A stretch of 64,000 nucleotides of DNA from a virus: the IMG/VR virus record IMGVR_UViG_3300037258_000147, positions 32,001-96,000 of that record; one strand, written 5' to 3'. Below, piece after piece: positions 3,865-63,264 of the stretch. Each line of letters begins with the position of its first letter. Within the stretch, counting starts at the first letter, position 1. The notes below the pieces were generated by a model. It did not search any database, was not told the origin of the DNA, and was given only the letters and a program-made list of their open reading frames with translations. A program made the position numbers and the translations under genes.

Positions 3865-4088
3865 CTAGGCCGATCTCCCGTTTAGGTCGTCCCTAGTATC
3901 TACCCACGGATCGTATGCTCCATTTGAGGCTCTCTTTTTGCGCTGTTTAAACCAATTATTTATTCTACTGACTAGAATGTTAAATTTGAATTTCCACGTG
4001 TTGAACCACTTCTTCATTCTTTCACCTCTACCGTAATCCACGGTGACGGGTTATTTTGTCCACAAAACGGACGGTTTAGTTTTTTAGA

Positions 4089-6176
4089 TTAAACGAGAGA
4101 GCCGAACCCGCCAGAAGCGGACGGCGCTCCTGTCAAATCCTGCGGGGCTACTGATGCCTTGAAGCCCTCCCTCAAAACGTCTCTTGCCGCTCTCGCAACA
4201 TTTTCTGAGTCGGCTTGTTGTTCTTGTATCTGAGACCTTTGAGCCAACAGTTGCTGTTGTTGCTGGAACTTCTGTTCGTTTACTCCGCCTTGAGATTGCT
4301 GCTGCTGCCTTTGTTTATCTTCGTCCGTCATTGGTACAATAATGTCGTGGAAGTTTTTCATTTCAGCGGCTTCGAACCAGTTCCGGATAATCTCATCTAC
4401 ATTGACTTTCTTGCCTTCGATTGCTAGTTGTTCTACAATAGACGGCTGAGAAAGAAATTGAGTCAATTGGGGGAGGGCCTGAACCATAATCCGGCGAACC
4501 TGCATCTTGGACCCCGCCAGAATATCAAACTTTACTCTAGCGTTTAAGATGTCTAATAAGTCTCCAGGTTTACCTTCTTCATCTAAATACTCATGCTTTA
4601 GTTCGTCAGACATGACGTAGTTTAATTGGGACTCTGGCAACATAGCCCGATTCATTTCCTGAAATTCATATAGCATTGGAACTATAACTTGGTTCGCAAG
4701 TTTGTCCACGAAATCGGAAATCGGGTTGTAAGCACCTTGTAACAGTCCTTGAGCGCCCGCAGAACTTCTAGCTAGATTCGAGTGTCCGGACGACCCAGCT
4801 TGTCCCATAGAACTAATTGGGTTCGCGCCAGATACAGTTTCTACTCTGCCCTGGGACCAGCCTATTAAGGCTCCGGCCTCGGGGACTGGTGCTGGTCTGC
4901 CTAATGGCGCTAAGTCTCCTTGAGAGTCTACTTGAATAATTTTACCAGGACCGATGCGAATATTCTGGGTAGGAATACTCTTTCCACGGACCTGTACAAG
5001 CGGGGTATTTAAAGCAAGAGAAGCGTTGTCAATAATAAGATGGGTGATACCAGTTTGAAGTCTTTGCTCCGCCCCAATCGTGCGCCCGAGACCCAAAGAC
5101 CAGAAAGCTCCTGGGATGTCCCACCATCCGACAGAGAGAAACGGGATTTTCCCGTAAATATTTTTGTCGTTGTAGATTACAAGTTTTTTCTGTAAGGCTA
5201 TTATATAAGTGTTGTTATCCCAACGTTCTAAAACCTCTAGGGGTTTTTGTAACGGATCGGCGGTGGTTTCTTCCCAACGAGGTTCTGCCCGGGCTTCCCA
5301 TAAAGGATTCCTAGAGCCATCTTCAGACACGTTTGATTCTACAGGTTCCTGAGGCGGCAAGAATAATTTTAGTAAGTCGTCTTTGGAAGGAATTGTATAG
5401 CCGGGGCGGTCCCGGAGCTTGTCTAAATCCTCCCACGTCATGTACCGGCGGCGGATAACATATTTTGCCTTGCGGATATCAGGCACATTAAGGCCGGGGT
5501 CTACTAAGACCTCCCGCATGTTTACAATGTGCTCAAATATAGGCCGGTCTACTACTTCTTCAATTACTTCTTCTTCTAATTCCCCAGAAGACAGTCTGGT
5601 TGGGGGAGTGCCAGGAACTAAACTCGGAACTGTCGCAGTAGGAGTTTTACGCTTGATTATTTTCCGTTCTTTAGTAAACTTTTCCCAGCCCCATTGGAAT
5701 AACGCCGTGCCGAATAACAAGCAGTTTCTCGTCCCAAGGACCATTTCTGTCCGGAAATCTATATCGTCTAGTTGATAACCTAATAAAGCAGAAACAGCCC
5801 GGGCAGCCTGAGAACTAGTTCCTGGTCTTTCTTGGGTAACGAACGGAGGATTTTCATAAAACAATCCGGACATTACTTGCGGTACAATACCGTTTACTGA
5901 AGTAGCTACTGTGAAAAACGGGATACTAGCTGCTTCTGTGGTTGTTCCGGGCCAGCAGCGGGGGCTGTTCGGGCTTTCGTAAAGAAATCGACTCGCACTC
6001 CAGCTTAAAATCCAGGCTTTTGTGTTCTCGGCTTGCTCCGCTCTTTGAGCGTCCTGGACCACCAATTTCAAAGCAGGCGAGTCTTCTTCCCAATAGCCGA
6101 CGTGCATCCGAGAAATTGCCTCAGATGGCGTGATATCCATATTAGGGTTTATCTTCGGTTCAGGGAGTATTGACAT
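4089..6176 (-). CDS. Portal protein (podovirus-like)
   Basis: 695 aa with FGTALFQWGW, GKIPF and PGKII motifs and a Gln-rich C-terminal helix; near the terminase. Confidence 0.85.
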   Translation of the reverse strand: MSILPEPKINPNMDITPSEAISRMHVGYWEEDSPALKLVVQDAQRAEQAENTKAWILSWSASRFLYESPNSPRCWPGTTTEAASIPFFTVATSVNGIVPQVMSGLFYENPPFVTQERPGTSSQAARAVSALLGYQLDDIDFRTEMVLGTRNCLLFGTALFQWGWEKFTKERKIIKRKTPTATVPSLVPGTPPTRLSSGELEEEVIEEVVDRPIFEHIVNMREVLVDPGLNVPDIRKAKYVIRRRYMTWEDLDKLRDRPGYTIPSKDDLLKLFLPPQEPVESNVSEDGSRNPLWEARAEPRWEETTADPLQKPLEVLERWDNNTYIIALQKKLVIYNDKNIYGKIPFLSVGWWDIPGAFWSLGLGRTIGAEQRLQTGITHLIIDNASLALNTPLVQVRGKSIPTQNIRIGPGKIIQVDSQGDLAPLGRPAPVPEAGALIGWSQGRVETVSGANPISSMGQAGSSGHSNLARSSAGAQGLLQGAYNPISDFVDKLANQVIVPMLYEFQEMNRAMLPESQLNYVMSDELKHEYLDEEGKPGDLLDILNARVKFDILAGSKMQVRRIMVQALPQLTQFLSQPSIVEQLAIEGKKVNVDEIIRNWFEAAEMKNFHDIIVPMTDEDKQRQQQQSQGGVNEQKFQQQQQLLAQRSQIQEQQADSENVARAARDVLREGFKASVAPQDLTGAPSASGGFGSLV

Positions 6177-6321
6177 TTATCTTCCGTGTGGTACAATGGG
6201 TTCTCAGTCAATCAGACTTGGTGGCTTCGATTTCAGAACTTACCGATAAGGTTCTCGGGTATTGGTGCGCCCCACTCCCTTGTCACGGAGACATTCTGAA
6301 GAGATTATCCATAAAATGGAC

Positions 6322-6660
6322 TCAATAAGTCTGCATCATGGAGTTCGGCTCCATTTGACCTGTCTCGCAATTGATGCTTCCCTTGATCGAGAGTGCGGAC
6401 CCGCCGACTCCCTCACCTTTGTTCTTCATAACCGGAAAATCGGCTTTGCCCCAGACGGACGGGGTTTGGTCCCCGGAGTCTTGGGTGTGCATTGGACCTT
6501 CTTGGGACTCGGTTTGCTTGACTAGCTGTCCAGCGCCTGAGGATTCTCCGGCGGACCCTGAAGGACCGACTGCGGGGAAATCAGTTGCTTTTGCGTAACG
6601 AGGGGATTCTAGATTGCCCCCTAAAGAAATAAGACCGCCCATTTTTGATTCGGTGTTCAT
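6322..6660 (-). CDS. Hypothetical Gly/Ser-rich protein
   Basis: 112 aa with internal repeat KAtDFPav/KADFPV. Confidence 0.65.
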   Translation of the reverse strand: MNTESKMGGLISLGGNLESPRYAKATDFPAVGPSGSAGESSGAGQLVKQTESQEGPMHTQDSGDQTPSVWGKADFPVMKNKGEGVGGSALSIKGSINCETGQMEPNSMMQTY

Positions 6661-6664
6661 TTTG

Positions 6665-6991
6665 TTAACCTCTTGGAATTAGTGCGGGCGGTAATGCCCG
6701 ATTTTCGGATTGTGTCGGAGCAGACGTGCTCCACGGGGGAGTAAAACTTTGTCCATTTAATGGACTTGCTGCTGGTTTCCAACCATTTGGTTTATCTACT
6801 CTAACGTGCGGCTGGACAGTGATTCTGAATAATTCGTAAGTCCCGGTATTTTCGTTGTCAGAATTTTGTGGCATTTTGCTTACAAATCTCTGCCCGGTAG
6901 GAACGTTCCACGAACTTGGAGTCGAGGCATCGGCCCAATGATCGGACAAAACCTCTCCGTTGTCTTCTAGTATCTGTAGGTGGATTTTCAT
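6665..6991 (-). CDS. Hypothetical protein
   Basis: 108 aa, abuts the terminase stop. Confidence 0.65.
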   Translation of the reverse strand: MKIHLQILEDNGEVLSDHWADASTPSSWNVPTGQRFVSKMPQNSDNENTGTYELFRITVQPHVRVDKPNGWKPAASPLNGQSFTPPWSTSAPTQSENRALPPALIPRG

Positions 6992-9112
6992 TTATCCCCA
7001 CAACCCCGCTCCTAGAATATTCGGCATACCGCCGGGGCTGGCGCTTGGTAAGTCGGGTTCTGGTAAGAAATCTGTCATACTAGACATTAAAGGTGATGGA
7101 GAGTCCAAGGACTGAAACATGCCGTCATCTCCTAACAAAAACCTTGAAGGGGACATTTGTTGGTGTGGACTTATTACTCCGTCGTCGCCCATGAAATACG
7201 CTTGACCTAAATTCGGTCGGTAATTAGGGTCGTAGATGTCATACCAGCCTTGACGATCCACATTCGAAAACATTTCTGTTCTATTCTCTACGATGACCTG
7301 AGTTGCTTTGGGAGCATATCTATTAGGCATCTGAGAGATAACATCTGGTATATCGTCGTGGTGGTGACTAACGAGACATTTTTCCCACTCAGAATAAAAG
7401 GCTTCTAGCTGAGGGTCGTCGGGGGCCATGCAGGCGTTCAGAAATTTCAATCGGCCTTCAGCTATCCACGGGTGCATGGACCGCATACGGACACGTTTTG
7501 CGTCGACCTGATTGTCTGTGGGAACCCAATCAATATGGGAGCACACCTCGATTACGCGAGGATTCTGAGTTCTAAGCGCGGTAGAAATAATGGTGGGTTC
7601 GAGTAATTCGGAACCAGCCGCTTTTTCAATGCCGATAATCCACGGCTGTTCTTGTTCTGCTAGGTCTACGATGGCTTGGGCCAAGGCAGAGTGGTTGAAT
7701 CTGCCGCGAATAATTTTTCGGACGTATCCTACGGTTTTTCTGTTTCCGGTTTTAGTTCCGTCTGGTTTTAACTCGTCTTCTTCGGACCATATAATGGACG
7801 CGCCTGTGGAGTAGTCTCTGCCCTTTTTTTGGCTAAAAGCAAAGTCCCAGAACTGGCAGCAGGGACCTTGACGCGGTAGTCTTTGAAACGGGACAACCGA
7901 GCGAACCATAAAAGCTCGATTGAATTCTACGTCACTTGCCGCTTGAGGATTTTGATTAAGTTGACCTTCAGTTACTCTTTCGTTCTTAGTGAACTTACTC
8001 ATAAAGAAAGAGTAAGACATTAAGTTAGGAAGAAGAAGTATACATCCGTCTTCCCCGGCTTCGGAGTAGGTTACGGGGCGGCCTTCTCTGGCTAATTTCT
8101 CGGCAACTTCCTGCTTTATCTGACAACACTTGCCTATTAAGATGTCTACATTAAAGGTCTGGTTATGTAGAAATTGCCATCCCCGACCCTGACGAAGTAC
8201 CAAGACCTCGCCTTTGGTTTTGAACTTGTCGGTTAATTTTCCGTAGTGGTCTACCTCGTGATAACGGGTTCCGATAAACTGAATGTAGAACCCACCCCCT
8301 CCTGGAATCAAAAGGTTCTCGACCAAATCTAATTTTTCGGATACGCTAAGACATTGGGTCTCTGTCTCAGAGTTCTTATCCGAAACAGCATCATCTGCCT
8401 TTATAACTTCGTAATGCCAGCCCGATTTTGTCTTTCCCACTGACGAAGCAACAATCGTAGGTTCCTTACGTCCGGTTTTCTTTGACTTGTAGACTGGGGT
8501 TGTGTAGAGGTTCCCCTTTCTCATGTCTTTGGCTAGACTGCAATGTTCTGGAAAGAATAGATTCGAGAAACTCGGATCATCCTCCCGGATAGTAAACATG
8601 GCCTTGACTTCGCTCATAAAACCAACAGACAAGCTGGCTTCGGCGGTCAGGTATAGGATTCGGATGCTAGGGTATGCAATAACCCACTGGTAGGTGTCTA
8701 CGTGGTCCGAGAAACTTTTAGCTCCTCCACGCGGCCAAAGCAAGACTCTGGTTTTTACGGGACTAAGTTTCTCAATAGAGACAGCGGGGTCTTTCTTGAC
8801 ATATAGGTCCCAAATGGAGTCGTATTGCGGGTCTAAAAATATGTTTTTCTCTATCGGTAGAATTCCACCGTCAGAAGCCGGAATAGCGTCCCAGAGGAAA
8901 TAATGAGCTAACCACCGAATGTCGAATACGCAGCGCCTACGAACTTCTTTCCCCAAAGACGAGGTAGGTACAGTATCTGATCCTAATTTAGAAAGATTCA
9001 CTAAATCTTGTTTTATTTCCAGAAGAAAGGAGTATAGAATATCGTTTGGGATATTCTCTTTACTTCCATATTGATCCTGGAGTGAGTCGAATCTATCTCG
9101 ATTACCTGACAT
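6992..9112 (-). CDS. terL: Terminase large subunit
   Basis: Walker A PRGGAKS, Walker B IKADD, GTRY, nuclease WDFAFS...DYS, HDDIPD. Confidence 0.92.
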   Translation of the reverse strand: MSGNRDRFDSLQDQYGSKENIPNDILYSFLLEIKQDLVNLSKLGSDTVPTSSLGKEVRRRCVFDIRWLAHYFLWDAIPASDGGILPIEKNIFLDPQYDSIWDLYVKKDPAVSIEKLSPVKTRVLLWPRGGAKSFSDHVDTYQWVIAYPSIRILYLTAEASLSVGFMSEVKAMFTIREDDPSFSNLFFPEHCSLAKDMRKGNLYTTPVYKSKKTGRKEPTIVASSVGKTKSGWHYEVIKADDAVSDKNSETETQCLSVSEKLDLVENLLIPGGGGFYIQFIGTRYHEVDHYGKLTDKFKTKGEVLVLRQGRGWQFLHNQTFNVDILIGKCCQIKQEVAEKLAREGRPVTYSEAGEDGCILLLPNLMSYSFFMSKFTKNERVTEGQLNQNPQAASDVEFNRAFMVRSVVPFQRLPRQGPCCQFWDFAFSQKKGRDYSTGASIIWSEEDELKPDGTKTGNRKTVGYVRKIIRGRFNHSALAQAIVDLAEQEQPWIIGIEKAAGSELLEPTIISTALRTQNPRVIEVCSHIDWVPTDNQVDAKRVRMRSMHPWIAEGRLKFLNACMAPDDPQLEAFYSEWEKCLVSHHHDDIPDVISQMPNRYAPKATQVIVENRTEMFSNVDRQGWYDIYDPNYRPNLGQAYFMGDDGVISPHQQMSPSRFLLGDDGMFQSLDSPSPLMSSMTDFLPEPDLPSASPGGMPNILGAGLWG

Positions 9113-9122
9113 AAACCGTCCA

Positions 9123-9389
9123 TTAATTGGACAAATCGTCCTTGTCTTCCGGAGACCAGTATCGGCAACAGCCTTTTATCGGGTCTATAATCTTGAACCC
9201 GGTTTTCTTGTCCGAAGGAACTTGCTTGTCTTTTGCGACTATCTTCTGTCGGCAAAGATTTTTTCCTGTTAAATACTCGCAAGTTCCGCAGTGAATTCTG
9301 AGAGGGGTCTCGATATATTCAGATACACGAGTTCCTTCTCCGTGGGGTTCGGATTTACCCATCGCGGTTTTGGCTCTTGAGTCCGTCAT
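9123..9389 (-). CDS. Small Cys-rich protein
   Basis: CGTCEY...C...GCCRYW pattern, possible metal or Fe-S binding. Confidence 0.6.
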   Translation of the reverse strand: MTDSRAKTAMGKSEPHGEGTRVSEYIETPLRIHCGTCEYLTGKNLCRQKIVAKDKQVPSDKKTGFKIIDPIKGCCRYWSPEDKDDLSN

Positions 9390-9558
9390 TACTTTATTTT
9401 CTTTTCCAAAGCCAATCCGTGCATGTCAATTAGTGGAGATTCTTTTCCGTCTCCGTGAAAGCAGTGACCATACCCAGCCTCGGTAAGTTTATCGTAAATC
9501 TCGTAGTAGGTTTCTTCGGAGACTGGCAGAGTTACGTAGGTGTAAGTGGAGGTAAGCA

Positions 9559-9741
9559 TTACTTTTTTCGTTTCCGGGACTGGCCCGATTCGGACAGGGC
9601 GACTGCGATCGCCTGCTTGGGGTTTGTTACTTTCGGTCCTTTTTTAGAACCTGAATGTAGAGACCCGCTCTTAAACTCATCCATTACCGTTTTTACGGCA
9701 GCGCGTTTTCCAGATTTTGTAGTAGGCTTTTTGTCAGGCAT
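9559..9741 (-). CDS. DUF6496-like basic protein
   Basis: VMDEFKSGSLHSG...KVTNPKQAIAVALSE motif. Confidence 0.75.
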   Translation of the reverse strand: MPDKKPTTKSGKRAAVKTVMDEFKSGSLHSGSKKGPKVTNPKQAIAVALSESGQSRKRKK

Positions 9742-9911
9742 CTACCAACTCCTTAAGCAGTTGCTCACCATAAACAGCTTCGTTTTCTTTCTCGGATGCT
9801 ATTGCAAGATAGCCGTTTAGACGAGAGTTGTTCGCCGACATTCTATCTTGGCGAATCTTTCCAGTCAGGTAAAATCGAAACCGCTCGATAACGTCTGGTG
9901 TCATATTTCCT

Positions 9912-10631
9912 TTAAAATATCGCGGCGGAAATTTTAGCTCCCGCTGCTAGAAACGGATTAGCTATATTCCACGTTCTTACAAAAGGATTCTTACTAGGGT
10001 GCAAATAAGTATAGGTTGCTTTGGTTTCTACTTGATCTCCAGTTTGGAGCATATGCTCCCCAGTTCCGGATATGGCTACAAAGTTTTTGCTTAACGGGCC
10101 GAGGTTATCCACAAAATCCGAAACCGCTTGTTTCTTTAACAAAGTATTTACGTTTGTTCCAATTTCCGTGTACTGGCTGACCATCGGATTTACTCTACCT
10201 AGCATCCCGTGAAAATCATCAAAAATTGTTTCTTCTTGGGAGTCTAATACGGACAGGTTTTTGTCTTCGTGATTAGCAGCAATTTCTAACTGTCCGGCAG
10301 TTAATCTAAAAGTCCCTAGAGTTTTATTTACATCAGCCAAAGTTCCGCAAGGGCCGGGTACGCAATTCCGATTAATGGATTGTAATGTGGTGTTAATTCC
10401 AACTGAGGTGCCCCCAAGTTTTTCGGAAGCACTGGACAAGGACCGCGAGGTTTTGCTGACCGCTGTATCTAGGTTGTTTAAACTCTTGGTAGTCTGGACC
10501 AAAACCGTGGATGCTTGGTTCCCTAAATTCTTAATAGCCCGAGTCGTAGTCCATAAGAAATACGACCCGAATCCTAGAAATATAACTAGAGACAAGCAAC
10601 AAACGATTTTGGACCAGTACAGGAGTTTCAT
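9912..10631 (-). CDS. Membrane-anchored coiled-coil protein (possible lysis accessory)
   Basis: N-terminal TM helix followed by a long helical region. Confidence 0.6.
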   Translation of the reverse strand: MKLLYWSKIVCCLSLVIFLGFGSYFLWTTTRAIKNLGNQASTVLVQTTKSLNNLDTAVSKTSRSLSSASEKLGGTSVGINTTLQSINRNCVPGPCGTLADVNKTLGTFRLTAGQLEIAANHEDKNLSVLDSQEETIFDDFHGMLGRVNPMVSQYTEIGTNVNTLLKKQAVSDFVDNLGPLSKNFVAISGTGEHMLQTGDQVETKATYTYLHPSKNPFVRTWNIANPFLAAGAKISAAIF

Positions 10632-10640
10632 AGTTCCAAA

Positions 10641-11021
10641 CTACGAGATTTGTCCGGACAAGGCGTTCAGGAAGGATACGATTCCGTTGGCTCCTGCTTG
10701 AATCTGAGCAGCAGTTGGAGTAGGGAGTTTATTCTGCTGTGCATACGCAAGTGCGGTTGGGGTGACTGCGGCGATTACTGCGGCCAGTTTCTGAGTTCCC
10801 GTGCCGTTCTGTTGTGCGGCTCCAGCAGCCAAAGCTTCCGTCTTTAGGGACTCGGTGATATAGGTGTTAGCAAGATTTACAAGACCAGTGATTTCTGGGA
10901 ACGCAGTTTCTGCCACACTTTCTCCTGCGGTAATAAGGGCCTGCCCTTGCGGGCTGCCGACATACGCGAATACTTTCTTCACATCCGCGCCAATAGTTTC
11001 TAGTACGCTCTTAAAACTCAT
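10641..11021 (-). CDS. Hypothetical Ala-rich membrane-associated protein
   Basis: 126 aa, ATGA-coupled to the upstream gene. Confidence 0.65.
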   Translation of the reverse strand: MSFKSVLETIGADVKKVFAYVGSPQGQALITAGESVAETAFPEITGLVNLANTYITESLKTEALAAGAAQQNGTGTQKLAAVIAAVTPTALAYAQQNKLPTPTAAQIQAGANGIVSFLNALSGQIS

Positions 11022-11281
11022 TTTGTTGCTCCTTGGGGTTGGGCCGGGGGTACCGGCAAAATAGGATTTGAATTATTCCTCGATATTGGAAGTGCTGTTT
11101 GAACCGAATCCCGAATCCAAGTCCATAATTCCTGCGGGGACTTAGGAATGCTAGGAGGCATATTTTTGGCTATAGACAAGCCTCCCGCGATGGCTCCAGT
11201 TCCGTATGCCTCGGAATGTCGAGTGACATGGCCTCCAATAGTGGACCAGAAGTCGCAAAAGAATTTCCAAAAACAGTCCAT
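11018..11281 (-). CDS. Small putative membrane protein (holin-like candidate)
   Basis: 87 aa with hydrophobic segments. Confidence 0.5.
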   Translation of the reverse strand: MDCFWKFFCDFWSTIGGHVTRHSEAYGTGAIAGGLSIAKNMPPSIPKSPQELWTWIRDSVQTALPISRNNSNPILPVPPAQPQGATK

Positions 11282-11282
11282 T

Positions 11283-11564
11283 TTACATTCCTGCGGGAAG
11301 TGCTTGGGCTTGGGCAGGTTCTGGCGGAGCCGCTGCGGGTGCCGCGCCCTGATCTCCCATTGTTTGGTCTAGGTGATCGTGCAAACTGTTCATATCGGGG
11401 ACTACATGCTGCTCTGTTTCGGGCATACTGCCGTCTTCTTCGGGGGAGAAGTGGTGGTGAGCAATGAATCCTCCCGATTTTCCGCGATGAATTTCTAGGT
11501 GATGCGGCTTTTTGCCGGATTTACTTTTCGACTTTTTTCCGCCCATGGCAGACTTGGCTCTCAT
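11283..11564 (-). CDS. Hypothetical His-rich protein
   Basis: 93 aa with AAGGA RBS. Confidence 0.65.
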   Translation of the reverse strand: MRAKSAMGGKKSKSKSGKKPHHLEIHRGKSGGFIAHHHFSPEEDGSMPETEQHVVPDMNSLHDHLDQTMGDQGAAPAAAPPEPAQAQALPAGM

Positions 11565-11666
11565 ATTTTTTCCTTGTCCATTAAATGGACGATTAGATTG
11601 ATTTTGTTAATTAACTGTCGCGCTCGCGAAGGTCGCGCCTTGTGCGTTGCTCACGGTTCCCCAAAC

Positions 11667-16980: not shown

Positions 16981-16984
16981 TCAA

Positions 16985-55503: not shown

Positions 55504-55505
55504 CC

Positions 55506-55751
55506 ATGAAAATCCAAGTTATTGAAAAACATATTACCGACGGCAAGCGGGGGTCGTGTACGCACGATCCTGTTGCCTTGTCCCTATTAGATGCCGGATT
55601 CCAAAAACCCTGGGTCAGCCCCGGATACCTTGCCTGGAGGTTTGAAAACAAAGATTACTTTCAGGCTATACCAGAAAACGTGCTAGAATTTATGAAACAA
55701 TTTGATAACGGGCAGTTGGTATACCCGTTCGATTTTGAGGTGGATGGATGA
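55506..55751 (+). CDS. Small paralog family member 4
   Basis: DPVALSL...QFDNGQLVYPFDFEV. Confidence 0.72.
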   Translation: MKIQVIEKHITDGKRGSCTHDPVALSLLDAGFQKPWVSPGYLAWRFENKDYFQAIPENVLEFMKQFDNGQLVYPFDFEVDG

Positions 55752-56077
55752 AACTTCTATGTAAAATATTCGGGTGCTGCCTGGAAGAAAACGGTCCTGC
55801 GTGCCGCCGATGCGGTGTTTGGCTATACGATTGGAGATTCGTTGACCGAGAAATGTCGTGGCTAGGTCCTTGGTATTCTACTACTTGGTGGGTTTCTTGC
55901 AATCGAAATTGGATTTCTCACGCTTGCGGAAACACAGACTGCGGGAAGAGATTATTTTTCACTTCAAAAGCGTGTTGCTCAGATAAATGTTATGATAGTT
56001 GGATACCATTCTGATTAGCCGATCCCAATAACCACAGCTGTGGCTGAAATTCAAGAAGAATTGGTTAAAAAATCCAC

Positions 56078-57106
56078 ATGGTAAAAGCTAACAAAAAGAT
56101 ACCCTCAAAACCAATATCCCTGAATGACGAGCAACAGGCCGTGGTGTCGGCCCGATCCGGGGTTTTCCAAGTCCAGGCAGGCCCGGGAAGTGGAAAGACT
56201 TTTGCTTGTACCCAGCGTATGGCCGGAATCCTGAAAGAAGGGGTTTCGCCAGACGATTTACTTTCTTTGTCCTTTACCTCAACCGGGGCGAAAAACCTAA
56301 AGACTAAAATCGAGGAAATTACCGGGGCCTTGTCCATTAATCGGACAGCCGGTACAATGACTTTTCACGGAATGGGGTTGAGATTTGCCCAAGAAGAAAG
56401 AGATGCGTTTAATTTTAAGGTTGCTGAATTCCCTCTTGCTACGGAGCCCGTGGCGTGCAAGCTGTCTGCCGAGGCCGCAAGACGATATGAAATTGATCCC
56501 CGCCTACTCCGGTCCCAGACAAGCCTATATAAGCGGAACCGGATTTCTCCTGCTGAGGCTGTCAAGAGAAGTGAGGCTTCACTCAAACCCCAGGAACTGA
56601 AACTCGCTTTAGCCTATAAGAACTACGACGCCAAAATGAAGGAAAACGGGGTTTTGGATTTCGACTCTCTAATGTACGAAATGGTGGAACTTCTAGAGAA
56701 ACCAGATGTCCGGAAAAGATGGCAGTATAAATACGTAATTTGCGACGAGGCCCAAGACTGTTGTATTACGGACTGGCAGTTACTGAAGCTCATTACTGAG
56801 AAACACGGAAACTTAATGTGCGTAGGGGACCCCGGCCAGTCGGTTTTCGGATTTCGAGGAGCTTCCCCAGACTTGTTTTTGAATATGGAAAAAATGTTCC
56901 CCGCAGTTCGGAAATTGTTTTTGGCCGCGAACTACCGAAGCACCCCAGAGTTAGTGTCTTTCTTGAAAGAAATCGGACCAGTTCCTGAGTTGGCTGAAAA
57001 ATTTCATACGTTAAACAGTTCAGGACCTGCGCCCGAAATAAAAGGTTTTGGAAACCAACAAGACGAAATAAACTGGATAGTTGGCAAGATCAAGGAGTCC
57101 ATTTAA
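56078..57106 (+). CDS. UvrD/PcrA helicase, N-terminal half
   Basis: AGPGSGKT, TFH, DEAQD, VGDPGQSVFGFRGA, NYRS. Confidence 0.9.
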   Translation: MVKANKKIPSKPISLNDEQQAVVSARSGVFQVQAGPGSGKTFACTQRMAGILKEGVSPDDLLSLSFTSTGAKNLKTKIEEITGALSINRTAGTMTFHGMGLRFAQEERDAFNFKVAEFPLATEPVACKLSAEAARRYEIDPRLLRSQTSLYKRNRISPAEAVKRSEASLKPQELKLALAYKNYDAKMKENGVLDFDSLMYEMVELLEKPDVRKRWQYKYVICDEAQDCCITDWQLLKLITEKHGNLMCVGDPGQSVFGFRGASPDLFLNMEKMFPAVRKLFLAANYRSTPELVSFLKEIGPVPELAEKFHTLNSSGPAPEIKGFGNQQDEINWIVGKIKESI

Positions 57107-57921
57107 TGGACAAGTCTGTCGCTATTTTAAACCGAACAAATCGGGGACTCCGGCCCTTTGAAGACGCTTTGTCCGAGGCTGGAGTGAAATACTACCTCGT
57201 AGGCCGAAGTGGTTTCTGGAGCCAGCCTGAGATTCGGGCAGTCGTTTCAATCCTGGGCTGTGTTTTGTACCCGGCAGACCACTATCTCATGGGGGCTGTT
57301 TCCTCTCCGTTCTGGCCAACAAAATTTCTGCCAAAAACGAAAATTTTATCCAGACTAAAAGAAATTAGAGGAGAGCAACCTAAGGAATCTGCAATATCTC
57401 ACTGGCAGATGCTTACCACAAGACCGGAATCGGTAGTAGAATCGAAAAACCTAGGGGCACTTCGAGAGTTTACTCAGTTCGTACACTCGCTCTCCCGATA
57501 CCGGGATTTAAGAGCAGTAGACGGACTAAAGTCTGTTATGGCGACTCTAAAAGTCGGGGATTATTTTTCTGAAATAGAGGAAACCCCAGACTCAAGTCCT
57601 CTCGACAATCTCCAGGAACTCTTAAGGTTGTCCGAAAAATGGACAAATATCCGGGAGTTTATGGATTACACTAGGCGAGCTTCGGCGGCTAGTAAGGGTC
57701 GTAAAGGAGTGGCTTTAAGTACGATCCACGGATTCAAAGGCATGGAGTCTGATATTGTGTTCCTGGTAGGGTGTCAGGAAGGCCAAATGCCTCACTCTAA
57801 ATCAACGGACTTACCTGAAGAAAGAAATCTGTTTTTCGTCGGGTGCTCTCGCCCGAAACAGGGACTTTACATTACTTACACTGGGGTCCCTTCACAATTT
57901 TTGAAAAAGGAACCCTCATGA
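57106..57921 (+). CDS. UvrD/PcrA helicase, C-terminal half
   Basis: VAILNRTN; LSTIHGFKGME; EERNLFFVGCSR. Confidence 0.9.
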   Translation: MDKSVAILNRTNRGLRPFEDALSEAGVKYYLVGRSGFWSQPEIRAVVSILGCVLYPADHYLMGAVSSPFWPTKFLPKTKILSRLKEIRGEQPKESAISHWQMLTTRPESVVESKNLGALREFTQFVHSLSRYRDLRAVDGLKSVMATLKVGDYFSEIEETPDSSPLDNLQELLRLSEKWTNIREFMDYTRRASAASKGRKGVALSTIHGFKGMESDIVFLVGCQEGQMPHSKSTDLPEERNLFFVGCSRPKQGLYITYTGVPSQFLKKEPS

Positions 57922-60043
57922 CCAAAAATCTCGCAGATACCACCCCCGAAATTCACAAACGTTGGTTTGCGGGCAAGAAATTGATTGATGTCGTCGGCTT
58001 CGAGCCGTACATCCGCTATGTGTTCGAGGGCGGCGGATATTTCGAGCAATACCGGCGTCTCGGCGAATTAAACTGGGTCAAGGTTGAAAACGGACTGCCT
58101 CCTAATAGCCCCGTAGGTCCAGAAACCGATCTGGTTCTTGTCCACACGAATCGAGAGTATCTTCCCAATATCACTACTGCTTCGGGAGAATACACAGAAG
58201 ATGGATTTCAGTGGACCTTAGATAATAAAAGGGTCCTTGAGCCAGTATGGGGAGGACGCGACCCCCTTAAAGTAACCGAGTGGGCCGCTATTAGCTTACC
58301 AATAAATCATGAAGGAAAGGTTTCCGAATGCACAAAAAACACATAACTTATGATCTGACTTGTGATCGATGCGAGCACCCTGTAGATCGTTTGAGTCAGT
58401 TGTATCTTAAGACTCCGCTGGTCGTTCGGGAGCACGGCTACGAAAATTCTCGGGATGAGACTATCTCTGAACTTTGTGACGACTGCTGGGATACATTGAT
58501 GGCGTTCTTGGGTAAAGAAACTAATTGGTGGAGAAAACTTTTCCATTTTCAAAAGAAGGAGATACCATGTCCCTGATGTCTCGTTTATCTGAAATAATGC
58601 CCAAGAAATCAGAATCTCTGTTTGCTGGTAAACTACGTATTAAACAATATCCTATTCGACACTCTGCGGATGCCTTTCTAGGTTGGCTTGGGGACGACTT
58701 ACCAAAAACCAGAGAAGAAGTACACGCGAGTCTTTGGGTATTTGGAGAAATGCTTTGCGGAGATATGGAAAAACAGGTCAACCATTCCATGAAACTGGTT
58801 GAGGACGTTATATCCAAGCATGTAAACCCAATATATGTAATAAAGAAGGAGAAAAATGAAACCAGTATCACCAGTTATTAAGGGTTTTGAGGAACATGAA
58901 TTTCTCTTAGCCAAAGACCAAAAACAATACCTCCCAATCCCAACTTTGGTTGCCGAGGGAGATGAAAAGAGTTTCATAAGTCGCTGGGAATTTACTCCAG
59001 AGGAAAAGGAGTTGATAGCAGCGGGAGGAACTCTGCTCTACCACCAACTTACTTTTGGAAACGATTTTCAGCCGATTTGTTTTGAAATCGTCGGTCCTAA
59101 GGAGAAGTTATGACTTGGTGGAATAAAGTGGCATTAAAAGAACCAGAAATACTTGGGTACAGCAGGCTTGGGGAGATGATTCCTTGCTCCAATCCCGAAA
59201 ATGTTGTACTGATTCCCGTAGCCCCACCTCCCGATCTATCCACCAAACCCGAAGATAAAATCGGGTATTGTTTTGGATATGTCTGTCCAAAAAAGCATGT
59301 CAACGAGACTTTTGACAGCATTACTATAGATGGATACAAGGAACGCAGAGCTTGTCAGACGTGCGGGGGTGTTGCGAAACCGGCTGTGGTGAAGAGGATT
59401 AGCGAAGCTCGGTGGGTAAATCACGACCGATCCTCTTCTTATGGTCTCAAACCAGACCCCGATTGGAGGTGGAGGCATGAAGTTTTCGCAGGTAGGTTCT
59501 CCGACGCGAATTGGATGATTCAGTGGACCCGACGTGAATTCTTACATTATCTGGACTCTCCAAGGTCCGCTAGGAAGAAGAAATGAAGCAAAAGCAAAAG
59601 ACCGAAGTTCTTCAGGAAATCAAGCACCCAATTACCGGTAGGGAGCCTTTTCTAGCATTCAACCAGCCTAAATTGATTATAAATATTCACGATTATTCCG
59701 GGCGGTCTCATAATTTCTTGGACGGATGGTGTGCCTCGTTTCACCCTTTCCGGAGAGGAGATACTCTAAAGTTCCAACTATGCCGAGAATATCAGGTCGA
59801 ACTAACTTGGTGGGAGCAATTGTTGGCTTGGTTTAGAGAGGTAAAATGAACGCTATCGGCGTCCCTTTGAGCTCTCCAAACTGGTGGAAGAATTGTGTAG
59901 ACCAAGACGGAAACCCTGTCCACATCCTTACCATGAAAGATTTGGAGGAGATGATTCCTAAAGAGATTATAGACAGGCTGGCTGCGGAACTCGGCAAAAG
60001 ACTGAATGAGACGATAACTAAGATAGGGAGAAATATGCTATGA
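57918..60043 (+). CDS. Cluster of hypothetical genes (57918-58346, 58328-58576, 58567-58881, 58856-59113, 59110-59586, 59583-59849, 59846-60043)
   Basis: Coupled ORFs on the plus strand. Confidence 0.6.
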
Positions 60044-61203
60044 GTTTGTACACTAGTGCTTCGGGGAGGGCCGTCAATCACGCTTCAAGTTCCAGTTTGG
60101 ATACCTACAGGCTGTGCCGACGGAAATTCAAGCTGTCCCGCATCGATGGCTGGCGGCAGAAATCCAGGAAAGCTAGTCTAGAAATTGGCAAGTGCCTTGA
60201 GACCGCTTTACAGTATTATTACGAAAATGGCTGTAAGCCTGATGATTTTTCGGACGAGTGGAAACGCTTGTGGCTGAAATTCGAGTCGATTGAACTCGTC
60301 TATACAGACCAGGAACAAGACTGGAAAACCGTTTACCAGTTAGGTACCGAGTGGGCGAAATTATTCCACGTAATCCGCGATACTCTGCCCATCCGAAATC
60401 CTAAGTGGCAACTCCAGTTTTTGAAGGAACTGTGGCCGGGTGACTTGAATCTTGGCGGCATCAACTTCATGGGATATGTGGATATCCTTTCGATTTTAGC
60501 AGACGGGACTCGGTTAATTATCGATGTAAAAACTGCGAAGTCTAGTTTACCCATAACCTCGGGAATGATGGCCCTTGACGGGCAGCTTCGTAAATACGCT
60601 TGGCTTTCCGGAATCCGAGAAGTCGGGTTTTTGAACTTCGTTAAGTGCGACCCAAATTCTTTCCGTAAAGGAGTTGGGGTAACACTACTAGAAGATACTA
60701 GAGACTGGAAAGCCGGTCAGGTTCTGGTAGTCGCTAAATATTCGGCGGCAAAAGAAGATTCTGCGGAGTTATTTTACTTAGGTACCGAAGAAACCGTCCA
60801 TAAAATGGACGAAGAACTTGACGCGATTTCTGGAAAAGGGGCTAAAGAAAAAACAGAGGCTGTTTTCTCCGGATATCTGGCAGACGGGAGACTTTGCGTA
60901 ATAACAAGATCGGCGCTCACCAAAGTTAAAATCCAGTTTGTTCGTGGTACAATACCCGAAGAAGACCTGCCCGAAATTGGCCAGCAACTAGGTACAGATA
61001 CCTATGCTATATTTCAGGCGCAGAAAACCGGATATCCGGCAGATGGGGGAGTAAGATTTCCAAACGCGATCTGTGGATGGTGTGAGATGCGTGGAATTTG
61101 CCTAAAGGACAACAGGCTGCGGGACGAACTTCTCGTCCAAATAGGCCCCAAAGTTGAAGAGGATGACTGGCTAAAGGAACTGGAAACAGAGGAGACGGAA
61201 TGA
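60040..61203 (+). CDS. PD-(D/E)XK nuclease (RecB/Cas4-like, Fe-S cysteines)
   Basis: SSSLDTYRLCRRK; GYVD...IIDVKT; QLRKY; CGWCEMRGIC. Confidence 0.85.
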   Translation: MSLYTSASGRAVNHASSSSLDTYRLCRRKFKLSRIDGWRQKSRKASLEIGKCLETALQYYYENGCKPDDFSDEWKRLWLKFESIELVYTDQEQDWKTVYQLGTEWAKLFHVIRDTLPIRNPKWQLQFLKELWPGDLNLGGINFMGYVDILSILADGTRLIIDVKTAKSSLPITSGMMALDGQLRKYAWLSGIREVGFLNFVKCDPNSFRKGVGVTLLEDTRDWKAGQVLVVAKYSAAKEDSAELFYLGTEETVHKMDEELDAISGKGAKEKTEAVFSGYLADGRLCVITRSALTKVKIQFVRGTIPEEDLPEIGQQLGTDTYAIFQAQKTGYPADGGVRFPNAICGWCEMRGICLKDNRLRDELLVQIGPKVEEDDWLKELETEETE

Positions 61204-62117
61204 TCGACAAACCCTATGACGAATACTCGGGCAAGGTCATAAAAAACCTGCTGACTTGGCAACAGGTCGGTTACATAAACAGAAAAGTTGTGTTCTCAGA
61301 ATCCTGTGTTGGCAATTTGTCCGTCCGAGAGCTTCGTGGTTTGCTCGCCGACGCTTGGTTAGCCGGACTCGCGTACAGCTTGAATCTGATTGAAGGGGAG
61401 ATGTGATGTTCACTCGGCTTAAAAGAGTTTGGAAGGTCCTGCGCGGGAAGGAATATGGCTATCCCCCGTCAGAAGTCATCTACGTGAAATCCGGAAAAGC
61501 AGAAAATCAGTTTGTCCAGCTTCTCGCTTGGCGGGATACAGTTCTCGCTCTGGATGCGCAGGGTAAGATTTGGGAACTTCGAGAGCAGGCAGGATATCCC
61601 TATGGATTTGTAAACCAACTTGTTCAGGAAAGTCCGAGGAGCTACTGATGAAAGAAGAATACAAAGCATCTTGGAATGAAGAAATTACTGACTGCTGTGA
61701 GGTTAGTCCTCAGTACGGAGGAGGATATCCGGAATATTACAAGAAGTGTCCACAATGTGGGGACGGCTCTCTATTTTGGCCCACAAAAACCCATTACGTC
61801 TATCATCCTAGCAGCTACGAGAAGAATTTGGAAGATAGGATCAAAAGTTTGGAGCAAGAGGCATGAGTCTATCCAGACGTGGTTTCTTTGGTATGCTGGC
61901 TGGTCTGGCGGCTTGTCCATTATTCGGACTAAAAAGCCTATACGCTGGTCCTATTCCCGGGCATAATTACGTCTTCCACTATAAGAATTTTATCTGCGAC
62001 GACGTAGTCTCCCCCAAAAATAGTATTGACCCCAAAAATTACGATGACTACTGCCGAGTATTTACGTGGAAACATGAACCCGGAATTCTTTGGTGGTCTA
62101 AGGAGAGTCATGACTAA
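61200..62117 (+). CDS. Four small hypothetical genes (61200-61406, 61403-61648, 61648-61866, 61863-62117)
   Basis: Coupled ORFs; the last has an SRRGFFG Tat-like N-terminus. Confidence 0.55.
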
Positions 62118-62742
62118 ACTCGTACTAATTTCTGACACCCACGGTAAGCACAGACAGTTTGATGTTCCAGACGGAGATATTTTGATCCACGCCGGGGATA
62201 TTATGACCTCTGGCTGGGACGTATCGGAAGTCATAGATTTCGATGTCTGGTTAGGGTCTCTACCCCATCCGTTTAAAATCGTAATCGCTGGTAACCACGA
62301 CTGGATTTTCGAGAAGTATTACGCTACTAGACAGCATATCACCAACGCTTTGTACCTAGAAGATTCTGGCATCGAAATGATGGGTCTGAAATTTTGGGGA
62401 TCGCCAGTCCAGCCGGAATTCAATAATTGGGCCTTCAACCGAAAACGCGGCGAAGATATTCAGAAACACTGGGACAAAATCCCGGACGACACGGACGTTT
62501 TAATCACCCACGGACCTCCTAGTGGGATTTTAGACTGGACCAAACCTGGACGGGAAAGTTTAGGCTGCCGAAATCTACGTAAAACTATAGATCAAATCAA
62601 ACCAAAACTTCACGTGTTCGGGCATATTCATGGGGGTTACGGGGTGAGTAGAGTAGAAGATACCACTTTTGTAAACGCCTCTTTGCTAGACGAAGCCTAT
62701 AGACCTGCTAATGAACCGGTTGTCGTGGAGTTGTCCGATTAA
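62110..62742 (+). CDS. Calcineurin-like metallophosphoesterase
   Basis: ISDTH, HAGD, IAGNHD, THGPP, FGHIH. Confidence 0.9.
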   Translation: MTKLVLISDTHGKHRQFDVPDGDILIHAGDIMTSGWDVSEVIDFDVWLGSLPHPFKIVIAGNHDWIFEKYYATRQHITNALYLEDSGIEMMGLKFWGSPVQPEFNNWAFNRKRGEDIQKHWDKIPDDTDVLITHGPPSGILDWTKPGRESLGCRNLRKTIDQIKPKLHVFGHIHGGYGVSRVEDTTFVNASLLDEAYRPANEPVVVELSD

Positions 62743-63242
62743 TGGAATTATATAGGGAAGCAGTAGTCAGTGACGACCAGAAATACCGCTATACTCTTTA
62801 CCGGGAATGGCGGGAGGATATTTTCGACCCGCTGAAAATTCTGAACTTCGTCATGTTGAATCCTTCCAAGGCAGACGGGCTGGTAGACGACCCGACTATC
62901 CGAAAATGTATTGGTTACGCAAAAATCGGCGATTTCAACGCAATTCGCGTAGTTAATTTATTCGCTCTGCGCTCTACTGACCCTAAACAGTTACAATACG
63001 AGTACGTTAACGGAGGTGATACAATAGGCCCGTTGAACGATTCCTATGTCCGAGAACTGCCTTCGGAAGAAACTGTTTGTGTGGCTTGGGGTTCTACCTT
63101 CCAAAACAAACCTTGGGTCCAAAACAGAATTGCTAAAACTTTCCAGTTTCTAAACAGGAAACTATACTGTCTCAAAAAGACCAAAGACGGCCATCCGTGC
63201 CATCCAGTGATGCTCGGATACGGACCTTTAATCGAATTTTAG
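62742..63242 (+). CDS. DUF1643 family protein
   Basis: YRYTL.REW; FVMLNPSKAD..DDPTIR; NLFALRSTDP; AWG; HP. Confidence 0.85.
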   Translation: MELYREAVVSDDQKYRYTLYREWREDIFDPLKILNFVMLNPSKADGLVDDPTIRKCIGYAKIGDFNAIRVVNLFALRSTDPKQLQYEYVNGGDTIGPLNDSYVRELPSEETVCVAWGSTFQNKPWVQNRIAKTFQFLNRKLYCLKKTKDGHPCHPVMLGYGPLIEF

Positions 63243-63264
63243 TCCGAAAAATGGACGGAAACAC

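Follow-up and report, generated by a model that had tools for sequence, protein, structure and literature searches.

Cluster O mycobacteriophages carry a dispersed 17-bp dyad, TGTTCGG-NNN-CCGAACA, which is present in 34 copies in Corndog; it has an A/T-rich center, lies in short intergenic gaps, at gene 5' ends and within genes, occupies similar positions in relatives and shows only a slight orientation preference (PMC4351075). The repeat is missing from host genomes, and a dimeric protein is thought to bind it, its function not being known (PMC4351075). The stoperators of Cluster A phages, the targets of the L5 gp71-type repressor, are more than 20 copies of a 13- to 15-bp word, about 1 per 1.7 to 2 kb, that favor short intergenic spaces and whose orientation tracks the direction of transcription. 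They are fully asymmetric, their protein is a monomer with two DNA-binding domains, and reversal abolishes function; the phages themselves are proven to be temperate, with a known repressor (PMC9283540).

The word studied here, GTCC-N7-GGAC in an uncultured phage, is like the Cluster O repeat a short A/T-centered palindrome found in more than 30 copies, both between and within genes and at positions shared by relatives. Unlike that repeat, it has shorter arms (4 to 6 bp) and a longer spacer (7 bp) that is polar and lineage-specific, a clear co-orientation with transcription, and conservation at deeper divergence, where proteins are 40 to 70% identical. The sequence of the word is different and the phages and hosts are unrelated: for the DNA polymerase, the best hit to a characterized phage reaches only 33% identity and does not come from a mycobacteriophage.

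Abundance and Spread of the Word

In the whole 104,680-bp record of the ~105-kb phage (G000), we found 60 exact sites, about 1 per 1.7 kb, against 3 matches to a reversed control pattern. The window, the whole 64-kb stretch analyzed here, contains 39 of these (Table 1), whereas 100 dinucleotide-preserving shuffles averaged 0.98 and never exceeded 3. The array is confirmed and is stronger than an earlier note had claimed: all of the 36 perfect starts that it listed are correct, three sites (38642, 44980, and 61915) had escaped it, and its eight one-mismatch copies (those in Table 1 other than 7785 and 49799) are real. With at most one mismatch, the tighter pattern GTCC-R-W5-Y-GGAC gave 45 matches in the window versus 0.29 expected. 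One-mismatch copies number 21 genome-wide against 1.45 expected, the mismatch usually affecting one of the outermost positions, 1 or 15.

Two relatives, G001 (DNA polymerase 62% identical) and G002 (49% identical), contain 56 and 53 sites, respectively, whereas the control pattern has 1 to 7 matches per genome in the three phages. Dozens of further IMG/VR contigs carry the word at densities of 0.3 to 1.5 per kb. The dense word is lineage-specific, as is also supported by a distant 61-kb phage with a dense word of its own, GGAAGTNACTTCC, in 51 copies. Sites are present in every gene module, the tRNA array included, and are spaced more evenly than chance (CV 0.74 to 0.81 versus 0.97 for random placement), with a shortest gap of at least 149 bp; islands of atypical G+C content (12 to 16 kb and 40 to 44 kb of the window) have none.

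Table 1. Copies of the word and a candidate binding protein in the window
Feature	Position	Strand	Context
Exact site, GTCCACAAAACGGAC	4058..4072	+	Intergenic, portal gene stop 16 nt before; core against local minus-strand transcription
Exact site, core ATTTAAT near-symmetric	6751..6765	.	Within 108-aa ORF; one-mismatch site at G001 homologous codon
Exact site, gene junction	9118..9132	-	Large terminase start (9112, minus strand) 5 nt downstream
Exact site	11576..11590	.	Start codon 11 nt downstream; abuts 5' side of ribosome-binding site
Exact site	16925..16939	-	5' end of 777-aa ORF
Exact site, intergenic	20536..20550	.	tRNA region
Exact site	22466..22480	-	tRNA-His (22380-22455, minus strand) 10 nt downstream
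Exact site	23572..23586	-	tRNA genes on both sides
Exact site	26774..26788	.	Between tRNA-Ser(TGA) and tRNA-Ser(GGA); no overlapping tRNA by ARAGORN
Exact site	27010..27024	+	Within tRNA-Ser(GCT), variable-arm region; offset 48 from tRNA 5' end
Exact site	27821..27835	-	tRNA-Leu(TAA) 2 nt downstream
Exact site	29477..29491	-	36 nt upstream of -35 of perfect minus-strand TTGACA-16-TATAAT promoter-like site
Exact site, core reversed	33581..33595	-	Early ORF 29 nt downstream
Exact site	34408..34422	+	TTGACA (34442) 19 nt downstream
Exact site	34667..34681	+	First G of site completes TAG stop of upstream ORF
Exact site, core reversed	35788..35802	-	TTGACA -35-like hexamer 8 nt downstream
Exact site	36470..36484	+	Pentapeptide-repeat protein gene start 11-17 nt downstream
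Exact site	37788..37802	+	~47 nt downstream of perfect TTGACA-17-TATAAT; then ribosome-binding site and ATG
Exact site, new	38642..38656	-	Within conserved 79-aa basic protein gene
Exact site	39086..39100	+	Close to end of 89-aa ORF
Exact site	43037..43051	+	Stop codon 4 nt before
Exact site, core reversed	44227..44241	-	Abuts extended -10-like TGgTATAAT
Exact site, junction	44442..44456	+	Overlaps TAG stop; then ribosome-binding site; ATG 11 nt downstream
Exact site, new	44980..44994	-	Within 70-aa ORF; TTGCCA-17-TATAAT 37 nt downstream; site at G002 homologous codon
Exact site, gene junction	45651..45665	+	TAA closes upstream ORF; ATG (45660) opens DNA polymerase
Exact site	46728..46742	+	Within DNA polymerase, codes VRKMD; exact site at same codon in G001
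Exact site	48271..48285	+	Within RNA ligase
Exact site, junction	49687..49701	+	Stop of upstream ORF inside site; ATG 10 nt downstream
Exact site	51480..51494	+	Likely clamp-loader start 9 nt downstream; likewise in G001 (8983) and G002 (81343)
Exact site	51775..51789	.	Within clamp loader; exact sites at homologous codon in G001 and G002
Exact site, junction	52741..52755	+	ATG 10 nt downstream
Exact site	53879..53893	+	Within RecT; exact sites at homologous codon in G001 and G002
Exact site	54477..54491	+	186-aa ORF start 11 nt downstream
Exact site, core reversed	56332..56346	-	Within UvrD-like helicase gene
Exact site, stop/start junction (TAATG)	57097..57111	.	Joins two helicase-related ORFs
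Exact site	57630..57644	+	Within helicase C-terminal ORF
Exact site	60796..60810	+	Within exonuclease; homologous codon exact in G001, one mismatch in G002
Exact site, core reversed, new	61915..61929	-	Within small ORF; site at G001 homologous codon
Exact site, junction	63242..63256	+	Overlaps TAG; HNH gene ATG 8 nt downstream
One-mismatch copies	3212..62747	.	Starts 3212, 6307, 7785, 30545, 35425, 40072, 40556, 40706, 49799, 62733
Weak candidate binder	38606..38842	+	79-aa basic protein, pI ~10.5; 62-72% identical in relatives

Selection and Conservation of Position

Synonymous-codon shuffles, which leave every protein sequence unchanged, gave 4.3 sites (maximum 10) in the conserved coding sequence of G000, where 28 are observed, and the enrichment holds under this codon-preserving control. 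Across the three genomes, 28, 20, and 28 coding sites compare with about 3 to 4 in shuffles, an excess of 5- to 7-fold, and intragenic sites are found in all three reading frames. Although the proteins are only 40 to 70% identical, sites are kept at homologous codons, with exact copies in the genes of the clamp, clamp loader, RecT, exonuclease, polymerase, and giant tail protein; in these, the arms are retained and the core is altered between genomes. The earlier note's gene contexts (DNA polymerase, RNA ligase, clamp loader, RecT, helicase, nuclease, and gene junctions) and its siting of copies beside ribosome-binding sites and promoters proved right, and the expected conservation of position in diverged relatives was found.

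Orthologous gene starts also retain a site. That at 11576 has counterparts at G001 36422 and G002 4357 with opposite core orientations, and upstream of another orthologous gene the site is forward in G000 (20422) and reversed in G001 (72328). At one further orthologous place, the three sites (G000 15143, G001 78399, and G002 37326) are all reversed. Reversed copies thus obey the same constraints as forward ones, as would be expected of a single duplex object, and this fits less comfortably with an RNA loop or a promoter.

Symmetric Arms, Polar Core, and Orientation

The arms GTCC and GGAC, together with Y at -2 and R at +2, are two-fold symmetric. The 7-nt core between them is polar and genome-specific, reading GAATAAT, AGATAAT, GATTAAT, or RWAAAAT; an identical core occurs in 22 of the 56 sites of G001, and GATTAAT dominates in G005. 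The spacer, described earlier as A/T-rich and of fixed length, is indeed A/T-rich but is a specific, polar word rather than merely that.

The core is co-oriented with transcription at 111 of 156 scorable sites and reversed at 45 (~70% and 29%, or ~2.5:1). This bias is real: background k-mers fail to account for it, and from codon usage the words that prevail in G001 and G002 would have a forward-to-reversed ratio of only 0.8 to 1.4. Transcription and replication directions are inseparable in these genomes; replication probably runs the same direction as transcription. No more than 40 nt before a start codon, we found 21 of the 60 sites in G000 (6.3 expected) and 64 of 169 overall, typically ending 8 to 17 nt away and directly 5' of the Shine–Dalgarno sequence. 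The three- to fourfold enrichment just upstream of start codons may reflect only where noncoding room exists.

The earlier comparison with stoperators is apt in density, gene-boundary preference, and orientation bias (PMC9283540), and the 60 copies in 104.7 kb are similarly dispersed and gap-favoring. The word is unlike stoperators in its palindromic arms, its many intragenic copies, and its orientation, which in stoperators follows transcription with hardly an exception, whereas the 29% of reversed copies here are conserved.

Discussion

Rather than arising by chance, as an artefact of coding, or as a hairpin of structure alone, the site looks like a protein docking word. Quite possibly, it is a docking site on duplex DNA where a sequence-specific phage protein serves a directional process in a stoperator-like manner, a putative role that we favor tentatively. 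A phage-encoded protein would contact, in a two-fold symmetric manner, the inverted arms (Y-H-GTCC ... GGAC-D-R), which lie one helical turn from each other, and would also read, or be tuned by, the polar 7-bp core (R-R-W-T-A-A-T), which may have co-evolved within each phage lineage. Some 50 to 60 copies per ~100-kb genome would be retained wherever the sequence tolerates them: in gaps between a stop and the next ribosome-binding site, at fixed codons in genes, and between or within tRNA genes. We infer that a protein binds the word, that its target is DNA rather than RNA and, as the core runs along transcription in ~70% of cases and probably along replication likewise, that the protein, once bound, acts on directional machinery. 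RNA polymerase, moving along two divergent gene arms of ~50 kb each, would most likely meet the sites as polar checkpoints or roadblocks, giving temporal control or silencing in the fashion of stoperators. The dimeric binder proposed earlier agrees with symmetric arms and flanks lacking covariation, with the selection, and with the even spread; a plain homodimer sits poorly with the ~2.5:1 co-orientation, and a symmetric dimer alone leaves the asymmetric core unexplained. Against this reading stand the predicted folding of the RNA form, the many copies abutting Shine–Dalgarno sequences, and the inseparable directions of transcription and replication.

The same docking array could have an architectural or identity role, in compaction or organization of the DNA, self-DNA marking (e.g., as a shield against a nuclease of phage or host), or counter-silencing, although we consider this somewhat unlikely; compaction and self-marking were also listed in the earlier note, beside silencing and partition. 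Known DNA-organizing arrays (matS/MatP, SBS/SlmA, NBS/Noc, and parS/ParB) consist of 12- to 16-bp palindromes in tens of copies, read by dimers, tolerated in genes, and confined to chromosome domains, with no polar core known. The earlier note's analogy with parS and matS is a looser one; density here is ~100 times greater than in such arrays, the sites are not confined to a domain, and the core is polar; ParB-, MatP-, SlmA-, or Noc-like proteins were not detected among the proteins scanned. An architectural role would suit the coverage of all modules, with one site even within a tRNA gene, the even spacing, and the location of most sites away from promoters. It would also suit the siteless islands, which are expected if the word builds up only in long-resident DNA, and a transcriptional role was judged unlikely by the Cluster O authors too (PMC4351075). 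A purely architectural dimer, however, would leave both the polar core and the ~2.5:1 alignment of that core with transcription without a cause, and the excess upstream of starts also speaks against it, unless this only mirrors noncoding room.

Alternatively, the word could act as an RNA hairpin in long polycistronic transcripts, where a phage RNA-binding protein would affect translation, mRNA stability, or antitermination; we regard this as unlikely. The boxB hairpin of the lambda and P22 nut sites, read by N protein, is present in one or two copies per genome and has a stem that covaries from phage to phage. Our 15-nt element resembles boxB in its possible 5-bp stem and A-rich pentaloop (predicted) and in its co-orientation with transcription, and the hairpin, with a stem of 4 to 5 bp and an A-rich loop of five to seven nucleotides, would be of boxB size. 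The RNA form is predicted to fold at -3.4 to -5.5 kcal/mol, with a stem probability of ~0.75 in context. A stem with a specific loop would explain symmetric arms around an asymmetric center, the A-rich core would be in the mRNA for most copies, and the sites directly 5' of Shine–Dalgarno sequences are suitably placed. The element differs from boxB in its 60 copies, its reversed copies, which would form a different loop but are equally conserved, and its lack of covariation. The stem is invariant across lineages, and among 542 unique family sites we found no base-pair covariation beside the arms: positions 5/11 are G/T in 278, A/T in 222, and G/C in only 8, and Y at -2 and R at +2 are independent (181 Watson–Crick pairs versus 197 expected). 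Compensatory change, as expected of a structured RNA, was thus not seen. One-mismatch copies show no G–U signature, G1>A (n = 13) outnumbering the RNA-tolerated C15>T (n = 7) at the outer positions. Copies conserved within coding regions and the one within a tRNA-Ser gene also argue against a hairpin, and an Rfam search gave nothing but tRNAs at gathering score.

A promoter specific to the phage, or a sigma-dependent pause site, is an improbable identity for the forward word; its -10-like core nATAAT, followed by GG, would then be read by host sigma-70 or the phage's small sigma factor. The cores AATAAT, GATAAT, and TAAAAT do resemble TATAAT, being -10-like in G000, G001, and G002, and the phage's own promoters have the sequence TGTGGTATAATG. 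The orientation of the word matches that of the genes, before whose starts it is enriched, and a conserved 172-aa protein containing sigma regions 2 and 4 adjoins the clamp genes, an arrangement likened to T4 late transcription. However, a reversed copy replaces a forward one upstream of the same gene, reversed copies are conserved, and in G005 the dominant core, GATTAAT, lacks the A at -11 that is critical. The word comes without a -35-like element, the phage already has canonical host-type promoters, and the palindromic arms would be left without a role.

A selfish or recombinational repeat, either a transposase-spread REP/MITE-like element or core sites of a tyrosine recombinase, is very improbable. 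In its favor are the identical cores within a genome, the tyrosine recombinase encoded in all three genomes, and the layout of inverted arms flanking a polar spacer of 7 bp, which resembles recombinase core sites. However, the copies are orthologous in position between genomes with diverged proteins, and are therefore ancient and fixed, not products of recent transposition. They fit into existing codons and add no length, where a REP/MITE-like element would be nonorthologous, extragenic, and length-adding. Their arms span only 4 to 6 bp, compared with 9 to 13 bp for known recombinase arms, and an active recombination site in fifty direct copies would cause the genome to be deleted.

If a protein docked on duplex DNA in a stoperator-like manner, silencing would imply lysogeny. 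The tyrosine recombinase is consistent with this; neither Pfam nor PHROGs revealed a repressor-like protein, a terminase search of 185,579 species genomes found no prophage relative, and lysogeny is, unlike in Cluster A phages, putative. Pfam detected no DNA-binding domains among the conserved phage proteins besides the sigma-like factor. The binder suggested earlier, the DUF3102-like protein at 43182..43841, has no Pfam match, and two relatives in which the word is retained lack an orthologue, which makes it a poor candidate. The conserved 79-aa basic protein is a weak lead rather than a finding; its predicted fold combines four strands with a long helix (pLDDT 74) and matches PC4/PUR-like structures only weakly (Z <= 3.9).

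Enrichment and spread of the word

The word GTCC-N7-GGAC occurs 39 times in the window, compared with 0.98 copies expected and a maximum of 3 in dinucleotide-preserving shuffles, and 60 times in the whole record, compared with 3 for a reversed control pattern. The enrichment of a window-wide palindromic site claimed in an earlier note on this DNA is thus confirmed: all 36 start positions listed there were correct and the eight one-mismatch copies that it named were all real, with three further copies having been missed (see the table). The note had also proposed a codon-preserving control and a comparison with relatives, and both bore it out. Conserved coding sequence of three genomes contained 28 (in this phage, G000), 20, and 28 sites, whereas synonymous-codon shuffles preserving every protein sequence gave 4.3, 3.2, and 4.0, respectively. 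Together, the two types of shuffle rule out chance or composition as the source of the word. The intragenic sites are found in all three frames and encode differing peptides (e.g., VRIMD, SPNNGQ, and LSEKWT), which rules out a coding artefact.

Two relatives found through the DNA polymerase, G001 (110 kb, polymerase identity 62%) and G002 (93 kb, 49%), carry 56 and 53 copies, and exact-word scans revealed dozens more IMG/VR contigs with the word at 0.3–1.5 copies per kb. Five of those records, partial genomes of the same phage kind, hold 23–40 copies each. The exact word of G000 gave only single matches in other viral contigs, and its relatives carry cores other than its own. The word is a hallmark of a clade. 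Across 185,579 species genomes, one exact word gave only single chance matches among the matches listed, which excludes a host regulon or host motif to that extent. A search of a literature library with the four commonest words found no paper containing any of them.

Anatomy and conserved positions

When its own asymmetry is used to orient it, the site reads Y-H-GTCC-[core]-GGAC-D-R. Two-fold symmetry holds for the arms and for the preferences in the outer flanks, but the core is polar, its most constant part being the 3' WAAT that abuts GGAC. The dominant core is RWAAAAT in G000 (with some fully symmetric ATTWAAT), GAATAAT in G001 and G003, AGATAAT in G002, GGATAAT or AGATAAT in G004, and GATTAAT in G005, with G003, G004, and G005 denoting further relatives with the word. 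One-mismatch copies numbered 52 in three genomes, compared with about 5 expected. Most of their deviations fall at positions 1 and 15, the outer ones, which leaves TCC/GGA as the hard core of the arms.

Using pairwise protein alignments, we mapped homologous codons between proteins that are only 40–70% identical and found exact sites at such codons in the clamp, clamp loader, RecT, exonuclease, polymerase, a 230-aa protein, and the giant tail protein. At these positions, the arms stay and the core changes. Sites are shared at orthologous gene starts as well; the clamp loader, for one, has a site upstream of it in each of the three genomes.

Placement, spacing, and orientation

Each genome has 21 or 22 sites (21, 21, and 22) no more than 40 nt upstream of a predicted start, compared with 5–7 expected; these typically end 8–17 nt before the start codon, just 5' of the Shine–Dalgarno sequence, and some sites provide the TAA stop and ATG start of adjoining genes. 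Others take arbitrary relative positions inside genes or fall between tRNAs, and one is located in the variable-arm region of tRNA-Ser(GCT). The gaps between sites are more even than random (CV 0.74–0.81 vs. 0.97, P = 0.014–0.085 per genome), none being under 149 bp. The longest gaps coincide with two G+C islands (see the table) that contain no sites. For several of the island genes, an orthologue is missing from one relative or from both, suggesting that the islands are recently acquired DNA.

Scored against the gene arms, 111 sites run forward (A-rich core on the coding strand) and 45 run in reverse, with 13 being ambiguous. Sites outside genes show more of this bias (62:19) than those inside (49:26). 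Strand composition is ruled out as the cause of the bias, as coding strands contain ATAAT and ATTAT in balanced numbers. For the words that dominate in G001 and G002, a codon-frequency model predicted forward-to-reversed ratios of 0.8–1.4, too low for codon usage to be the cause in the relatives (2.6 observed inside G001 genes); for the two commonest G000 words the model gave 1.0 and 3.8, and codon usage may contribute there. The TAA and ATG that a site itself supplies at junctions cover only about 20 of the 62 forward intergenic sites. Reversed sites show the same arms and flanks as forward ones, the reversed state is kept at some orthologous codons, and at some gene starts a reversed site takes the place of a forward one, as before the gene whose site has opposite orientations in G000 and G001.

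DNA duplex, RNA hairpin, or promoter

An RNA hairpin is a possible functional form, as RNA of the site could fold (−3.4 to −5.5 kcal/mol, stem probability about 0.75 in context), but in 542 unique family sites no pairing extends past the four invariant arm pairs. Positions 5/11 of these sites are G/T in 278 cases, A/T in 222, and G/C in only 8; the pyrimidine at −2 and the purine at +2 are independent (181 Watson–Crick pairs vs. 197 expected), and −1/+1 are most often A/A. An extended hairpin was rejected: neither positions 5/11 and 6/10 nor the flanks from ±1 to ±5 showed covariation. At the gathering score, Rfam matched only tRNAs in the whole window and gave no match for twister ribozymes in window 32890–36041. 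A copy lies 6–7 nt from the hairpin of a convergent-arm intrinsic terminator in all three genomes; it has no power to separate DNA from RNA because it is still transcribed as part of one arm. Half-site preferences that are independent, arms that do not vary across lineages, and reversed copies that are functional fit what a protein on duplex DNA predicts, and a structure-defined RNA element would not predict them.

It is also possible that the word is a promoter, given that the cores resemble −10 hexamers and that a sigma-like protein is encoded beside the clamp genes. However, reversed copies are conserved, no −35-like partner accompanies the word, the G005 core GATTAAT is without the key A, and the genome already has ordinary host-type promoters. 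Two perfect TTGACA–TATAAT sites are present in the window (see the table) and TGTGGTATAATG has ten intergenic copies in G001, so that host RNA polymerase probably acts on canonical promoters. In intergenic DNA, we found no second over-represented late-promoter motif, only host-type TTGACA and TGTGGTATAAT words. As several early-region sites are located 8–37 nt upstream of host-type promoters, they may be in some regulatory contact with transcription initiation. The 172-aa sigma-like protein resembles sigma-70 regions 2 and 4, with both matches falling slightly short of the Pfam cut-offs; it is kept in all three genomes, and its clustering with the sliding clamp recalls T4 late transcription.

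Search for a binder

About 100 proteins were scanned against Pfam and PHROGs, revealing no helix-turn-helix, ribbon-helix-helix, or ParB-type protein. The DUF3102-like protein that the earlier note had put forward as binder was set aside, as it has no Pfam match and no orthologue in G001 or G002. Three phrog_19191 paralogues of ~80 aa in the replication arm were modeled with high confidence (AlphaFold, pLDDT 96.6); Foldseek gave no PDB match and the Atlas neighbours were all hypothetical viral proteins, and with no structural match pointing to function these too were rejected. A 79-aa basic protein, 62–72% identical in the relatives and among the better-conserved small proteins, has a predicted fold of four strands and a long helix with weak PC4/PUR-like similarity (Z ≤ 3.9), which makes it a lead only as a candidate binder. 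Other conserved proteins of unknown function follow the clamp (230 aa) and the sigma-like gene (140 aa) or lie in the replication arm (186, 127, and 99 aa).

Genome context

The source record is 104,680 bp long, with an estimated completeness of 97%, and its polymerase is only 33% identical to those of the closest characterised phages. Two long gene arms diverge. Encoded on the minus-strand arm are 28 tRNAs and, as structural proteins, the large terminase, portal, and major head protein. Small early genes are on the plus-strand arm, along with genes for a tyrosine recombinase, two DNA methyltransferases, the small sigma-like protein described above, and a full replication set, with a family-A DNA polymerase, RNA ligase, clamp loader, RecT, SSB, UvrD-like helicase, exonuclease, primase-helicase, and sliding clamp. 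Where the arms diverge, the GC skew switches sign, so transcription and replication are probably co-directional in both arms. No prophage relatives were found via the large terminase in 185,579 species genomes.

The endonuclease VII-type domain occurs in three separate genes and HNH genes number at least two, which is unusually many for small nucleases. The N-terminal domain of dATP/dGTP diphosphohydrolases (PF18909, E = 3.6e-9) is matched by one protein, whose neighbour weakly resembles a nucleoside 2-deoxyribosyltransferase; the pair hints at nucleotide-pool remodelling or a modified base. One early gene codes for a pentapeptide-repeat protein with a fused DUF5758. Within this protein class, the Qnr/MfpA type mimics DNA and acts on gyrase.

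Coordinates of sites, genes, and regions mentioned in the text
Feature	Window	Genome or other record	Remark
Additional perfect copies	38642, 44980, 61915
Terminator copy, G000		genome 6262	one outer mismatch
Terminator copy, G001		G001 88147	one outer mismatch
Terminator copy, G002		G002 46276
Gene-start site, G000		G000 20422	forward
Same gene start, G001		G001 72328	reversed
Promoter-like site	37713-37741 (+)		16-17 nt spacer
Promoter-like site	29440-29413 (-)		16-17 nt spacer
DUF3102-like protein	43182..43838
phrog_19191 paralogue	45421-45657
phrog_19191 paralogue	48960-49301
phrog_19191 paralogue	55506-55748
79-aa basic protein	38606-38842
Sigma-like protein		L005:251-766 (genome 251-769)
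Sliding clamp		genome 102590-103648
Endonuclease VII-type gene	20696-21121
Endonuclease VII-type gene		genome 1755-2240
Endonuclease VII-type gene		genome 5603-6073
HNH gene	976-1938
HNH gene	63265-63828
PF18909 protein		L005:5074-5379 (genome 5074-5382)
2-Deoxyribosyltransferase-like protein		L005:4682-5074 (genome 4682-5077)	adjoins PF18909 protein
Pentapeptide-repeat protein	36502-37176
G+C island	12000-16000		G+C 0.59 (~0.47 elsewhere)
G+C island	40000-44000		G+C 0.54 (~0.47 elsewhere)

Discussion

A protein-binding array, as the earlier note proposed, is the best-supported reading of the word; its binder and role we infer. Dense single-word arrays have been known in phages for a decade as the Cluster O repeats, and for longer as stoperators, and to our knowledge nobody knows their role, stoperators excepted. 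The Cluster O repeat of mycobacteriophages is a 17-bp dyad with 34 copies and function unknown (PMC4351075), and the stoperators of Cluster A phages are another close published parallel (PMC9283540). In contrast to known arrays, the word here has arms that are symmetric around a core that is polar and lineage-specific, and it is kept at fixed codons across deep divergence.

A distant phage, G008 (loci L420–L423; complete record of 61,386 bp, 61% GC, polymerase 32% identical to that of G000), has a dense palindrome of its own, GGAAGTNACTTCC, with 51 copies of GGAA-N5-TTCC compared with 0 for a control pattern, many of the copies lying in coding sequence. Dense lineage-specific words thus recur among these uncultured phages. 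Among detectable proteins, G008 and G000 share just the DNA polymerase and a DUF1643 protein, so the shared-gene approach gave no lead to a common binder.

In a more specific reading, which we regard as improbable, the word would be a checkpoint, composite and polar, and its copies would form a re-loading array that serves processive antitermination or phage-DNA self-recognition. A symmetric, clamp-like grip on the arms would place a phage factor over the −10-like core, and forward-moving transcribing (or replicating) machinery would be paused and modified about every 1.7 kb by an array running through genes and tRNAs alike. The core would evolve separately in each lineage, and distant phages, such as G008, would evolve whole words of their own.

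The clade is an unusually strong study case, with dozens of genomes, invariant arms, a polar core co-evolving per lineage, copies at fixed codons across deep divergence, and a measurable orientation bias. It offers handles on the binder, through co-variation, and on polarity, in vitro. If the word is simply a repressor array, stoperator logic reaches well beyond actinobacteriophages; if large lytic phages generally use such an array to mark or control operons of 50 kb, a new layer of phage gene regulation would be added.
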